This document shows positions 16,534 through 43,360 of a stretch of DNA of 64,000 nucleotides, one piece after another. A model generated the notes under the pieces. The model was not told the origin of the DNA and made no database searches. It saw only the letters and a list, made by a program, of their open reading frames with translations. The stretch's first letter is position 1. Each line of letters begins with the position of its first letter. Source of the stretch: an uncultured Chloroflexia bacterium (lineage in GTDB: Bacteria; Chloroflexota; Limnocylindria; QHBO01). A program made the translations under genes and the position numbers. The DNA lies in assembly GCA_963825525.1 (NCBI GenBank), contig CAWGTN010000002.1, positions 352,001 to 416,000 of the forward strand. The letters run 5' to 3'.

Positions 16534-17832
16534 TCAATTGACCGTGAGTGCCTCACTGGTGAGCTCGTACGCGCCACGATGGTCTCCGGCCTGTGCGCGC
16601 AGGTCGGCCCAGTCCCGCAGAACCTCCCGCAACCGGCCCGGAACCCTGCTCGAACGAGCGAGCGTCGCCGCATCACCAAACCGTGCTTCGGCCTCTTCGG
16701 CCCTGCCGCTCGCGCGCAGTGCCCGCGCCTGTGTGAGGGTGGCGCCCAGCTCCGCGAGCTGATTGCCGCTGCGTGTGGCGTAGTCGACGGCCGCGGCGGC
16801 CAGGGTCATGGCCTCATCGGCTTCGCCCGCGGCCAACGCGACCTGCGCCTCGGTGTCGGCGACGGCCGCCAGCCAGCGCTCGTCGCCGGTCGCTTCGATC
16901 TGCGCCCGCGCATCCCCGGCGAGCTCGCGAGCTCGCTGCACCTGCCCGGTCGCCAGGAACGCAAGCGCGAGGTCATTCTCGATGCGAGCCGACTCGAAGA
17001 TCGCGCCCGCGGCGCGATACAGGGCCATGCCCTGCGTTCCCGCCCGGATTGCCGCTTCGAAGTCCCCGACCTCGCGATAGCCCACGGCCAGGTTGAACAG
17101 GAAAGCCGCGCGACGCCGATCATCGAGGTCCGCGGCCAGACCGCGCGCCTCTTCCAGGTACGACAGCGCACGCGTCGAATTTCCGGTTCGAGACTCGACA
17201 GCGGCAAGCGAAGTCAGAAGCCGCATCTCGAAATCGGGCTCCACGCGCAGGCCGGATCGGACCTGCTCGAGGAGCGCGGACAGGATGCTGCGCGCATCAG
17301 GTTCGTTGTCGGACTCGTACAGTCCGTATGCGAGCCAGTAGCGCGCGAGTGCCGCATCGGCATCGCGGCCCGCCAGTCCGTAGATCCGTGCGGCTTCCGA
17401 GGCCGCCGCCACCGTCTCGTTCCCGCGGTCGAGGCGCGCAAGCGCTTCGGCCAGCCCCCGCAGCAGGTCTGCGCGCGTGGAATCGTCGGACGGAAGGTCG
17501 AGCAGCTCGGTGTAACCGTCGGCGGCCGCTTGCCAGCTGCCGGCAGCCAGCTGCATATCGACCTCGAGACGGGTCCACGTCGGATGCGACTCATCGATGA
17601 AATGGCCCGGCGGCAGGTTCAGCCGCTCGGAGATGTAGTTGAGCGCGACCATGGAGGGTCGAGCGATACCGGTTTCGAGGGCGCTGACATACGCCTTGGT
17701 GTAGCGCTCCCCGGCAAGCTGCTGCTGCGTGAGCCCGGTCCGATGGCGAGCTTCGCGGATGCGTTGCCCGATGCGGTGCGCGAGCTCACGGTCCTGGTCG
17801 GTGGCTCGGGCACTCGTCTTGGTCCGTGGCAT
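16534..17832 (-). CDS. XRE HTH + TPR transcriptional regulator (RRNPP-like)
   Basis: IGQRIREAR..GLTQQQLA..YTKAYVSALETG..RPS HTH; Ala-rich helical repeats including FLFNLAVGY and IENDLALAF. Confidence 0.9.
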   Translation of the reverse strand: MPRTKTSARATDQDRELAHRIGQRIREARHRTGLTQQQLAGERYTKAYVSALETGIARPSMVALNYISERLNLPPGHFIDESHPTWTRLEVDMQLAAGSWQAAADGYTELLDLPSDDSTRADLLRGLAEALARLDRGNETVAAASEAARIYGLAGRDADAALARYWLAYGLYESDNEPDARSILSALLEQVRSGLRVEPDFEMRLLTSLAAVESRTGNSTRALSYLEEARGLAADLDDRRRAAFLFNLAVGYREVGDFEAAIRAGTQGMALYRAAGAIFESARIENDLALAFLATGQVQRARELAGDARAQIEATGDERWLAAVADTEAQVALAAGEADEAMTLAAAAVDYATRSGNQLAELGATLTQARALRASGRAEEAEARFGDAATLARSSRVPGRLREVLRDWADLRAQAGDHRGAYELTSEALTVN

Positions 17833-18008
17833 TGCGCGAGTCTACACCCGCTGGCAAGCGCTACTTGACCGTGGCATGCCCCGATCGTACTGGCGGGGAC
17901 GGGTGGGGCGGGACCGTTGGGTCATTGCCCGGTGGTTCCTTCGGCGCGACCGTGGCTGAGCGCCTTCGACGACGAAGGTCGGCCCGACCCACGTCAAGGA
18001 GAACATCG

Positions 18009-18134
18009 ATGCGAACCCGGCGAATCGCCCGCTCCATCCTGGTCGCTGGCACTGCGGCGGCGCTGAGCATTCTCAGCATCGTCTCGACTGTCATGGCCGT
18101 CACCGGCGGTGCGGACTTCCCCCTCCGCCGCTGA
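18009..18134 (+). CDS. 41-aa secreted propeptide (putative signalling peptide)
   Basis: SD AAGGAG; MRTRRIARSILVAGTAAALSILSIVSTVMA-VTGGADFPLRR. Confidence 0.8.
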   Translation: MRTRRIARSILVAGTAAALSILSIVSTVMAVTGGADFPLRR

Positions 18135-18182
18135 TCCTCGATCCATTCCGGGCCGCGGCGCGGCCCGGAGAGCGCTGAGCCC

Positions 18183-18767
18183 CTAGTGCCCGTGCTGGTA
18201 GTAGGGGTTTTCGCCTGCGTCGTGATCGGTCACGTCGACGATGGCCGTCACTGACGGGACGGCCGCCCGTACCGCGGTCTCGACACCCTGCTTGAGCGTG
18301 ACGTTGACCGCCGAGCAGCCCTGGCATCCGCCGCCGAAGCGCATGTATGCCGTGCCATCCTTGACGTCCACAAGCGTCACCTGCCCGCCATGGGATCCGA
18401 CGCCCGGGTTGATCTGTCGATCGATGACGTCCTGAACGGCGCGCGCCACCGGATCCTGCCAGCCCTCGTTCGGATTCTCAATGCGCAGGCCGCCACCGGT
18501 GACCGCCGGGTCGAGCTCGATCGATGCGCCCGCGAGATCGGTTGCGCTCGTCGGGTCGAGCACAACGGTCAGTCCATCGGATTCGACCGACAGGTCATTA
18601 TCGGCCCGTTCACGCGGATCCTCGAGCGCGATCTCGTACTGGAAACGACGTCCCTCTTTTGCCAGGACGCGTACCCGGAGAACTGCCTCGGGGAAGTTGT
18701 TGAAGGACCGAACGCCCTCGATCTTGGATCGAGCTTCGTCGGAGATGGTCAGGAGCGGATTGATCAT
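18183..18767 (-). CDS. nfuA: Fe-S biogenesis protein, NfuA-like
   Basis: Degenerate A-type domain plus INPGVGSHGG...FGGGCQGC...DVTDH..GENPYY. Confidence 0.88.
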   Translation of the reverse strand: MINPLLTISDEARSKIEGVRSFNNFPEAVLRVRVLAKEGRRFQYEIALEDPRERADNDLSVESDGLTVVLDPTSATDLAGASIELDPAVTGGGLRIENPNEGWQDPVARAVQDVIDRQINPGVGSHGGQVTLVDVKDGTAYMRFGGGCQGCSAVNVTLKQGVETAVRAAVPSVTAIVDVTDHDAGENPYYQHGH

Positions 18768-41819: not shown

Positions 41820-43360
41820 GACACCCTCCCGAAATCGATCAGGCCGATCGTGAGGTTGCCCAGGCCGCGCAGGCCGTCGGCCACCAACCACCAATTCTCG
41901 TCATACGACCACGGAATGACCGGCGCCTCCTCCGCCACGCGCTCCTCGACCGCGTCGTACGCGCGGCCGACCTCGTCTTCGGCTGCCCCCGCGGCCGCGT
42001 CCAGCAGTCGAACGAAGTCGGCGTCGCGCCATCGCCCGTAGTTGCTCAGTGCGTCCGGCTCGAGGAGAAGGCCGTACAGCGCGTGCGGAGACGCGTAGTC
42101 GGCGATCCAGTTGATCGTGAAGATCTGCGGCGGTCTCGACTCCAGGTCCTGGAGAAATGCCCCGGCACCGGGAGTCTCCGTCTCGATGGTCACGCCCAGC
42201 TCTTCGCGCCATACGGCGACAGCCGGGTCAACAAAGAGCCCGTAGGCGTTGACCGTGATCGTGCCCAGGTCCGCCCGATCCTCGTACCCGGCCTCGTCGA
42301 GCAATTGGCGGGCGCGGGCTGGATCGCTCGCCAGGCGCGGGCTGAAGCCCTCTGGCCAGATGGCGGGAGGCACGATGCTCGCCGCCGCCATCGATCCACC
42401 GCCCTCCGACAGCGGCACCAGGCGCTCCCGGTCGAGTGCAAGGCTGAACGCCAGGCGCACGCGGGCATCGTCGAACGGCGGACGCGACGTGTCGAATCCG
42501 AAGTAGCTGATGGTGAGCGGCTCGGCGGCATGCAGCCGCTTGCCGAGGTCGCGGTCATAGGCAATCCAGGTGGCGTCCGAGCCGGCCACCGGCGCCAGGT
42601 CGACGTTCCCGTCCGCGAACGCGTTCACCGATCCGCCGTCAGCACCTCCCACCCACCGAACCTCGTCGATCGGAGGCGGACCGGCGACGTAGCGCGGGTT
42701 TGCCTTGAGCACGACATCGGCGCCATCGAGGCCATCGATGACGTAGGGGCCGCTGCCGACGAAGGCATCCGGGTTCTGCCAGGTCGGCGTCGCATCGGCC
42801 GTCGCCGGGACGACGAACGTGGTCGGAGTTGCCACGATGTCAAGAAAGTACGAGGCCGGGTGCCGAAGGGTGACGATCAGGGTTCGATCATCGGGCGCCG
42901 CGATCGCGACCTCGTCCGCCTCGATCTCCCCGGCGATGCGCTCCGGCGCGCCACGGATGATGCTCAGCACATCGGGCGCCGTTGCACTCGTGGCCGGGTC
43001 CAGCAGGCGAAGCCACGAGCGTCGGACATCCTCGGCCACCAGCGGATCGCCATCGCTGAACTCGAGATCGGGTCGAATCGCGAACTCATAGGTGAGCCCG
43101 TCGTCGCTGATCTCCCACCCGGAGGCGAGAGAGGGGTACGGCTCGCCGGTCTCGTCCAGCCGCGTCAACCCGGCATACACCTGGAGCAGGAACTGCACGT
43201 CGCCGGCGTTGATGATGAACGCCGGATCGAGGGTGCTCGGCGCTCCGCCCAGGTAGCGGAGGGGCGGGCCGGCGGCGCGCGCGCTGCTGCCCGGAAGCGC
43301 CACGGCCAGCACGACAGCGCCCGCCGCGACCAACGCGGCTACCCGTGTCAGATGTCGCAT
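41807..43360 (-). CDS. Peptide ABC transporter substrate-binding protein (family 5)
   Basis: TLDPA, LASGW.ISDDG..Y.F, FSDG, GSGPY, PFDDARVR.A, W.ADY. Confidence 0.9.
   Translation of the reverse strand: MRHLTRVAALVAAGAVVLAVALPGSSARAAGPPLRYLGGAPSTLDPAFIINAGDVQFLLQVYAGLTRLDETGEPYPSLASGWEISDDGLTYEFAIRPDLEFSDGDPLVAEDVRRSWLRLLDPATSATAPDVLSIIRGAPERIAGEIEADEVAIAAPDDRTLIVTLRHPASYFLDIVATPTTFVVPATADATPTWQNPDAFVGSGPYVIDGLDGADVVLKANPRYVAGPPPIDEVRWVGGADGGSVNAFADGNVDLAPVAGSDATWIAYDRDLGKRLHAAEPLTISYFGFDTSRPPFDDARVRLAFSLALDRERLVPLSEGGGSMAAASIVPPAIWPEGFSPRLASDPARARQLLDEAGYEDRADLGTITVNAYGLFVDPAVAVWREELGVTIETETPGAGAFLQDLESRPPQIFTINWIADYASPHALYGLLLEPDALSNYGRWRDADFVRLLDAAAGAAEDEVGRAYDAVEERVAEEAPVIPWSYDENWWLVADGLRGLGNLTIGLIDFGRVSWDG

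Follow-up and report, generated by a model that had tools for sequence, protein, structure and literature searches.

Peptide signalling through receptors that combine a helix-turn-helix (HTH) domain with tetratricopeptide repeats (TPR) is treated as a trait of Bacillota (Firmicutes) and of their phages and plasmids in the available portions of two accounts, the RRNPP_detector paper (PMC10075063) and one on leaderless peptides (PMC10518010). In the receptors of the RNPP group, asparagines form hydrogen bonds with the peptide backbone, and Asn275 of NprR is conserved in all of them according to the accessible part of PMC3763537; for leaderless peptides of 8-10 residues acting with RRNPPA receptors, the extracts of PMC10518010 give a precedent in RopB and its leaderless communication peptide (LCP). 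Here we describe a cassette that invites comparison with these systems, found in a 64,000-nucleotide stretch (the window, meaning the whole stretch that was analysed) of contig CAWGTN010000002.1 from an uncultured Limnocylindria bacterium of the phylum Chloroflexota. It is composed of a gene for a 432-residue HTH-TPR protein and, divergent from it, a 41-codon gene for a small peptide with a predicted export signal. Its closest known systems are NprR-NprX and PlcR-PapR and, for a 12-codon form of the peptide gene at related loci, RopB-LCP. Chloroflexota are a mostly single-membrane phylum far from Bacillota, and Limnocylindria are abundant uncultured bacteria of soil and freshwater.

On balance, we lean towards reading the cassette as an RRNPP-like receptor-propeptide pair, working like PlcR-PapR and NprR-NprX of Bacillota. 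RRNPP(A) systems are recognised by an N-terminal XRE-type HTH (in the PlcR, NprR, Rgg, PrgX and AimR branches), a C-terminal TPR-type superhelix of 5-9 repeats in a cytoplasmic receptor, and an adjacent small gene whose propeptide product combines an export signal with a short C-terminal region, and each of these was found at the locus. A literature search, whose coverage excluded supplements and subscription journals, found no publication linking RRNPP, PlcR, NprR or Rgg with Chloroflexota and none on Limnocylindria and quorum sensing. Similarly, Chloroflexota and Actinobacteria are unmentioned in the accessible part of a structural-phylogeny paper (PMC12700828).

The HTH-TPR receptor and its small peptide gene

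The receptor has the domain plan and the fold of the RRNPP family. Its open reading frame (ORF), described earlier as an N-terminal XRE HTH followed by TPR repeats, was confirmed by reading the frame and by Pfam, with HTH_31 at 33.2 bits (cut-off 27) and TPR_12 at 46.8 bits (cut-off 30.1). An AlphaFold2 model built on a 54-sequence alignment is all-helical and confident (predicted local distance difference test 93.7, predicted template modelling score 0.77), and is laid out as the HTH, a linker and then helix pairs over residues 117-430. The profile of the receptor family matches NprR (E 5e-13), Rap proteins and, in a collinear alignment that begins in the HTH and continues into the TPRs, PlcR (residues 18-256 against 3-250, E 9e-14), and the top match of a single-sequence search of the whole PDB is the PlcR HTH (E 5.4e-5). 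In the profile search, consensus TPRs, LGN and kinesin light chain outscore PlcR and NprR. No curated RRNPP model of Pfam or NCBIfam is matched at its cut-off, nor does any curated NCBIfam model reach its own.

The preliminary description had placed the receptor beside PlcR, NprR and Rgg, and had pointed to two asparagine-bearing motifs as marks of peptide binding; both suggestions stood in part. A Foldseek search with the receptor model does recover PlcR, RapF and phage Rap, yet below generic TPR proteins (LGN/Pins), which come out on top. Both motifs, FLFNLA (244) and IENDLA (284), are present, but only the asparagine of the second is a family trait: N286 is conserved in 40 of 54 sequences and N247 in 5 of 54. 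N286 is located in the first helix of a predicted TPR pair and, by an offset in the structural alignment rather than a residue-exact alignment, is no more than about a helical turn away from Asn275 of NprR. An orthologue of the receptor is present in all 24 of the other sampled genomes of the genus.

The small ORF divergent from the receptor is a real gene, tightly linked to it. Direct reading confirmed the divergent 41-codon frame, its Shine-Dalgarno (SD) sequence AAGGAG and the 176 bp between the two start codons; the export signal was called by eye and from hydropathy, and its hydrophobic stretch covers about 20 residues. Among 20 same-genus loci, two of which are cut off upstream, the small ORF lies in the same place at all 18 that have upstream DNA (17 with ATG, one with GTG), or at 17 of 17 if L010 is dropped, which comes from a genome flagged as unpublished (G006). 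In most of these 18 orthologues a GGAG-type SD stands 6-10 nt 5′ of the start. Over 38 gap-free codons of the orthologues, variability at the third codon position is 0.321, against 0.168 and 0.114 at the other two. The ratio of non-synonymous to synonymous rates (dN/dS) is 0.34 overall and 1.81 in a frame-shifted control. The C-terminal core is the constrained part of the peptide, since dN is 0.057 and dS 0.75 in tail codons 30-38, compared with 0.204 and 0.43 in the signal part. The broader peptide alignment (A5) holds 35 sequences, including one row from G006.

An ORF filter requiring an SD-like motif, a basic N-terminus, a 15-residue Kyte-Doolittle mean above 1.8 and a length of 25-70 codons lets 84 ORFs pass in the entire 2.58-Mb genome, which amounts to 0.008 expected per 500-bp strand window. 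This expectation, together with the conservation, the dN/dS and the ratio of the frame-shifted control, rules out a chance ORF in GC-rich DNA. The architecture claimed earlier, an HTH-TPR regulator with an adjacent small signal-peptide ORF, is supported, and the small ORF is real. Homologues devoid of such an ORF, or an ORF that is not conserved, had been named as what would speak against it; instead, small ORFs of their own are found with the orthologues, in a paralogue clade and beside homologues of only 30% identity.

The residues beyond ..FP vary freely in linked copies and in the unlinked copies described below, which places the end of the functional core at FP or one residue later. Export through the Tat pathway was considered and rejected because twin arginines occur only in the window peptide and some others, while many orthologues have RTKRI or RTSRI. 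It is worth mentioning that a cysteine directly follows the predicted cleavage site (VMA-C, VAA-C, AAA-C) in the peptides of L046, L084, L092, L096, L100 and L116 and in the unlinked copy of the window genome (L120:3972-4094). These forms resemble a lipobox, and such peptides might first be lipid-anchored.

Peptide forms in related loci

The genome-wide ORF scan brought up a second peptide gene, unlinked to the receptor and flanked by the genes for an EamA transporter and a fused E1 dehydrogenase; it lies 57 bp upstream of the dehydrogenase gene and is co-directional with it. Its signal peptide is different, and its tail, CTGGADFPLRR, equals the window's VTGGADFPLRR over the last ten residues, the codons of which show 6 synonymous and 0 non-synonymous differences. 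Of 30 genus loci, 24 keep the gene at this site, among them L126 from G050, a genome flagged as unpublished, and two of the remaining six are cut at that end. Of the 15 genomes for which both copies were available, 11 show the same 7-residue core in the linked and the unlinked one. Where the linked copy has the rare GGA variant of the core, versus GGG, as in the window genome (G000) and in G046, the unlinked copy has it as well (2 of 2), and it occurs in neither copy of the 13 others, which is a small sample. Between G000 and G046 receptor identity is only 80%, and closer relatives of G000 have GGG, so GGA looks like two events.

Upstream of the second gene, GGTAAG is directly repeated three times at a spacing of 11 bp, and these repeats look like a site for a different factor of the response-regulator type. 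The idea of an operator shared with the cassette was tried and set aside: a triple GGTAAG repeat on one side and a single GGCAAGC within an imperfect palindrome on the other make a weak half-site likeness, and we claim no common regulator. The sole other GGTAAG-N5-GGTAAC-type site in the genome, at G000:C2 ~303,000-303,180 (-) and outside the window, is upstream of a small, very basic, unrelated ORF (MAKGRDRPRKEQKRK...).

A wider sample took in 80 related loci from named genome records, nearly all labelled Limnocylindria, Chloroflexota or Chloroflexia, of which 75 have at least 330 bp of upstream sequence. In 57 of these 75 loci from named metagenome-assembled genomes (MAGs), a signal-peptide ORF of 36-43 aa is present, with tails including TGGGDFP (followed by 0-5 residues), TGGGTWPIRF, TGGG[TN]FP[HS], TTGGGFPH, SNG[NG]GFP and SGGGSWPL. 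At the other 18, no signal-peptide ORF was found within 1.5 kb on either side; the same 18 loci have, at an equal distance from the receptor start, a 12-codon ORF that is preceded by an SD of its own and has the form M-[RC]-x-x-[HS]-x-G-G-G-W-P-x. These leaderless loci make up one clade of the receptor tree, nested among signal-peptide clades, and therefore the signal peptide was lost once while the C-terminal core (GGGWP) was kept. In all 18 the start codon ATG, its distance from the SD, the frame and the position of the stop are preserved, and the core codons GGC GGC GGC TGG CCC are nearly invariant in nucleotides within the clade. At L119, the one leaderless locus read for neighbours, there is no nfuA, and ligD follows next in convergent orientation.

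Some contigs of the wider sample are labelled Steroidobacteraceae, Angelobacter or Binatia (L042, L044, L070, L072, L077, L095, L096 and L111). Their receptors are 67-83% identical to that of the window (all but one 78-83%) and they carry the same peptide gene; with such Limnocylindria-like receptors, the bins are probably mislabelled.

Every receptor clade that we examined in Limnocylindria has its own peptide type. In family-f3 orthologues (about 50% identity) a divergent ORF of 40-41 aa is found at 4 of 4 loci, with G-rich tails of the ..[FY]P type (GGGGAPFPR, GGGPPPFA, DGGGSPFPK, GGGGTIYPR). In a paralogue clade (about 45% identity), which is represented in the window genome itself, all 9 loci have a convergent 35-aa ORF just past the 3′ end of the receptor gene, with a tail of the form [DE][GS]xPP[IF]P[RKH]. 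The homologues of about 30% identity come from another family of the class; in three of them a co-directional ORF of 40-41 aa with a C...C tail lies upstream, two have different tails and two are without an ORF by the filter. Peptide type thus tracks receptor clade: placed on the receptor tree, the peptide classes require 18 changes (the minimum being 14), compared with a mean of 61.6 after shuffling, and a count as low was reached in 0 of 200 shuffles. Since related genomes share labels, this result is to be taken as clustering and not as co-evolution.

Across the phylum, a receptor homologue (E <= 1e-30) occurs in 97 of 301 sampled Chloroflexota genomes, and the receptor-peptide pairing is general in Limnocylindria and partial elsewhere. 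The nine clear signal-peptide ORFs outside Limnocylindria are co-directional, upstream and 28-32 aa long (one has 60 aa), with tails such as ..WPNP or ..CC. The 60-aa ORF, upstream of the receptor at L180 (G302:C1), has two IWPN motifs in its tail, while the ORFs of the relatives L181 and L186 are 28 aa long and end in WPNP(T). The 60-aa form may be a tandemly duplicated signal, by analogy with what the available part of PMC11343458 describes for some Bacillota propeptides. Cysteine tails were seen in co-directional upstream signal-peptide ORFs of other Chloroflexota classes (L200-L202, L205, L209 and L214) and of L034-L036, as 31-32-aa ORFs ending in ..CC, ..CCP or ..CCV and as 40-41-aa ORFs with C...C; such peptides could be closed into rings by disulfide or other bonds. 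Pairs of HTH-TPR homologues on opposite strands, with about 3 kb between the two, occur in one family of another Chloroflexota class, at G279:C1:2927155-2932757 and similarly in G190, G086, G271, G335, G147 and G165.

Proposed signalling and other explanations

If the cassette is an RRNPP-like pair, the 41-aa product would be exported by the Sec pathway and cleaved after V-M-A, and the freed 11-mer would lose its variable basic end, leaving about 7-8 residues as the core, TGG[G/A]DFP. This core would be re-imported, probably via an Opp/Dpp-type ATP-binding cassette importer, and would bind in the TPR groove of the receptor. Binding would then alter the oligomeric state of the regulator or the way it binds DNA in the 176-bp control region shared by the two genes, and possibly elsewhere. 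Export, processing, uptake, binding, regulatory output and the reporting of cell density are steps that we infer, and the term quorum sensing, which the preliminary description had used, would apply by analogy of architecture. With regard to uptake, SBP_bac_5 (Opp/Dpp-type) gives 8 matches over the cut-off in the genome, in at least 6 genes, which show that importers of the right class exist and nothing more. Co-folding of the TPR domain (85-432) with the 41-aa propeptide gave scores of 0.06 and 0.12, the mark being 0.32, and speaks neither for nor against binding.

Several points weigh against a signalling pair. With its length of about 20 residues, the h-region could anchor the peptide in the membrane instead of being a cleaved signal, and simple vertical co-inheritance of neighbouring genes would equally give the co-diversification of peptide and receptor. 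Outside Limnocylindria, a clear adjacent small signal-peptide ORF was found at 9 of 40 receptor loci, 6 being doubtful and 25 having none by the filters. No operator common to the promoters of the two peptide genes was found. In the leaderless clade the three codon positions are equally variable (0.186, 0.212 and 0.188), and hence selection at the peptide level, as opposed to the DNA level, is not demonstrated there; moreover, the 12-aa peptide is hydrophilic, unlike the hydrophobic leaderless peptides known from the extracts cited above.

Perhaps the regulator does control the small gene while the peptide is not its ligand, the product being an effector, for instance a small secreted or membrane-anchored peptide directed at the envelope, at other cells or at another sensor, and the receptor sensing a protein partner or a metabolite through its TPR domain; we regard this as unlikely, yet as the most serious of the alternatives. 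XRE regulators are most commonly arranged divergently from their targets, the partners bound by TPR domains are of many kinds, and the top structural matches of the receptor include non-RRNPP TPR proteins. The possible anchor in the long h-region would suit such an effector, as would the setting of the second peptide gene, which stands in a different operon-like context (EamA, peptide, E1 dehydrogenase) with distinct conserved upstream repeats of its own. Nonetheless, a role in the membrane or envelope is hard to reconcile with the leaderless 12-codon form, which keeps only the C-terminal core and has lost all hydrophobic sequence. In addition, divergent, convergent and co-directional clades each keep a short-tailed signal-peptide ORF beside the receptor, and three gene arrangements that all include it argue for a functional couple and not for one promoter arrangement.

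Strongly conserved short C-terminal cores are also typical of the precursors of ribosomally synthesised and post-translationally modified peptides (RiPPs), so the small ORF might be such a precursor, its modifying enzymes being encoded elsewhere and the HTH-TPR protein being a regulator of the pathway. The Cys-rich tails (C...C; ..CC) in the cassettes of other clades, which could form rings, and the weak likeness of the TPR region to HaaT, a TPR protein of RiPP systems (NCBIfam, E 1e-4, far below the cut-off) are in keeping with this. However, what lies beside the cassette in the window is NfuA, LigD and hypothetical secreted proteins instead of a modifying enzyme, a protease or a dedicated transporter, the window core is without the Cys, Ser-Cys or Thr-Cys pairs typical of the common classes, and the leader is a Sec-type signal and not a recognition leader; we consider a RiPP quite improbable. 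An even smaller chance is left to a cis-acting leader or arrest peptide whose ..FP or ..WP end would stall ribosomes and control a neighbouring gene. Known arrest peptides do have conserved C-terminal Pro-containing motifs near the stop codon, the unlinked copy is found shortly upstream of the co-directional E1 dehydrogenase gene, and the core of the mini-ORF clade is conserved in nucleotides too. Yet nfuA converges on the window ORF, ligD converges in the leaderless clade (L119), and arrest fits poorly because neither here nor in that clade is there a same-strand gene downstream. The residues after FP also vary in number (0 to 5) and in sequence, so that the distance from motif to stop is not kept.

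Returning to the receptor-propeptide pair, a broader claim would be that Chloroflexota run their own family of RRNPP-like channels, with several parallel pairs in one genome, Sec-dependent propeptides as well as, in one lineage, a hydrophilic signal of 12 residues that is translated directly, and homologous cassettes in other classes. The window genome has two receptors and three peptide genes, and we hold this claim to be plausible, with our doubts somewhat outweighing our confidence.

Genomic setting and comparison with described systems

The positions of the cassette and of the related features are collected in Table 1.

Table 1. Features of the cassette and related elements (window coordinates unless another sequence is named; aa, amino acids)
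Feature	Position	Strand	Remarks
Receptor gene	16534..17832	-	432-aa ORF, ATG start; cytoplasmic regulator with XRE-type HTH and TPR superhelix
Receptor TPR superhelix	16537-17580	-	aa ~85-432
Receptor XRE-type HTH	17608-17772	-	aa 21-75; Pfam HTH_31
Divergent control region, 176 bp	17833..18008		Conserved blocks across 18 orthologous loci
TAGACT, -10-like hexamer	17839..17844	-	6 nt upstream of receptor ATG; putative promoter element
GGCAAGC-N3-ACTTGACC, imperfect inverted repeat	17853..17870		Between the two promoters; conserved in 18 orthologues
GGGACCGTTGGGTCATTG, conserved block	17910..17927	+	Upstream/5′ untranslated region of peptide gene; unique in genome
Shine-Dalgarno AAGGAG	17997..18002	+	6 nt 5′ of peptide ATG
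Propeptide gene	18009..18134	+	ATG at 18009, TGA ending 18134; 41 codons and stop; product MRTRRIARSILVAGTAAALSILSIVSTVMAVTGGADFPLRR
Peptide residues 1-30	18009-18098	+	Basic n-region, hydrophobic core, V-M-A
Peptide tail, residues 31-41, VTGGADFPLRR	18099-18131	+	Conserved core TGG[GA]DFP
9-bp perfect G+C stem CCGGGCCGC / GCGGCCCGG, loop GGC	18148..18168		Between converging peptide gene and nfuA; no T run
SBP_bac_5 substrate-binding protein gene	~42056-43144 (= G000:C2:394056-395144)	-	~24 kb from cassette
Second peptide gene, 40-aa signal-peptide ORF	G000:C1:23471-23593 = L120:3972-4094	-	Outside window; found in genome-wide ORF scan
Paralogous cassette, same genome (G000:C3), peptide ORF	L021:1301-1408	+	35-aa signal-peptide ORF, tail EGQPPIPR
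Paralogous cassette, same genome (G000:C3), receptor	L021:1426-2793	-	45% identical receptor
12-codon ORF, M-R-S-A-H-T-G-G-G-W-P-S and variants	L119:1290-1328	-	Also L089, L094, L099, L101-L105, L107, L110-L115, L117, L118

Between the two genes, the block AGTCTACA at the -10-like hexamer of the receptor is conserved in the 18-locus alignment. Receptor homologues have TATACT, TATCAT or TATAGT with the end of the hexamer 6-7 nt 5′ of the start codon, and no SD (the corresponding region here is 17830-17846 (-)); such a TAnnnT hexamer so close to the start suggests a leaderless receptor mRNA, and the receptor genes appear to be leaderless. The inverted repeat GGCAAGC-N3-ACTTGACC, a single occurrence in the 2.58-Mb genome, includes TTGACC as a -35-like hexamer for the peptide gene and is a candidate operator. 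RNAalifold applied to 18 sequences of the 5′ part of the peptide control region gave only -4 kcal/mol and few supported pairs, so conservation of the region is more likely at the DNA level. A scan of 17700-18300 for sigma-70 promoters and intrinsic terminators, the latter demanding a T run, found nothing; the hairpin at 18148..18168, by its structure and position, could be a bidirectional terminator.

The surroundings are chromosomal, as had been proposed when the locus was said to have no phage context. The neighbours encode an NfuA-type iron-sulphur protein, LigD, a DUF3090 protein and a protein tyrosine phosphatase (PTP)-type phosphatase, as well as a Septum_form protein and hypothetical secreted proteins, all ordinary chromosomal genes, and no phage or mobile genes were found around the cassette. 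The Chloroflexota host guessed at from the sequence was right too, as near-identical proteins are assigned by their sources to Chloroflexi / Candidatus Limnocylindria MAGs.

If the pairing is true, the origin of cytoplasmic HTH-TPR peptide signalling moves far back, or the system has spread horizontally; should the broader claim hold too, peptide signalling through cytoplasmic receptors would be an old, widespread trait of soil bacteria and not a speciality of Firmicutes. The pairing would also make a synthesisable peptide of 7-8 residues a handle on the soil community behaviour of a major uncultured lineage. The system is open to in vitro testing with recombinant receptor and synthetic peptides, which dispenses with culturing the organism, and it has built-in specificity controls in the Sec-dependent form, the leaderless form, the paralogous pair and the second unlinked signal gene.

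Compared with the described systems, the cassette is like NprR-NprX in its receptor, in which about 9 TPR pairs come after an N-terminal XRE HTH and which is close to NprR in size and matches it by profile, in that a Sec-type propeptide of about 40 aa is encoded beside it, and in the conserved Asn of a first TPR helix (N286 here). It differs in that the peptide gene is divergent and upstream, whereas in NprR-NprX it is co-directional and downstream; moreover, the host belongs to Chloroflexota and not Bacillota, the core is Gly-rich with an aromatic-Pro end, and identity is only 10-14%. With PlcR-PapR it shares the top solved-structure match, through the HTH, the collinear profile match and the predicted placing of the active part at the C-terminus of a Sec-exported propeptide. 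PlcR, however, has 5 TPRs in about 285 aa compared with 432 aa here, papR is downstream of plcR, and no palindrome resembling the PlcR box was identified at the cassette. Rap-Phr also relies on a Sec-exported propeptide with the signal in its C-terminal part (as predicted here), but Rap has an N-terminal 3-helix bundle instead of an HTH and acts on response regulators, not on DNA. The form found at 18 of the 75 loci is like RopB-LCP, as the latter appears in the extracts of PMC10518010, in being an ultra-small ORF of 12 codons with its own SD and no secretion signal beside the receptor; the LCPs in those extracts are 8-10 aa long and highly hydrophobic, while the peptide here is hydrophilic and Gly-rich, and the receptor is not of the Rgg/RopB type. 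What sets the cassette and its relatives apart from these systems is the phylum, the gene order, divergent here and convergent in paralogues, the Gly-rich core with its aromatic-Pro end, the hydrophilic leaderless variant and the second, unlinked signal gene.

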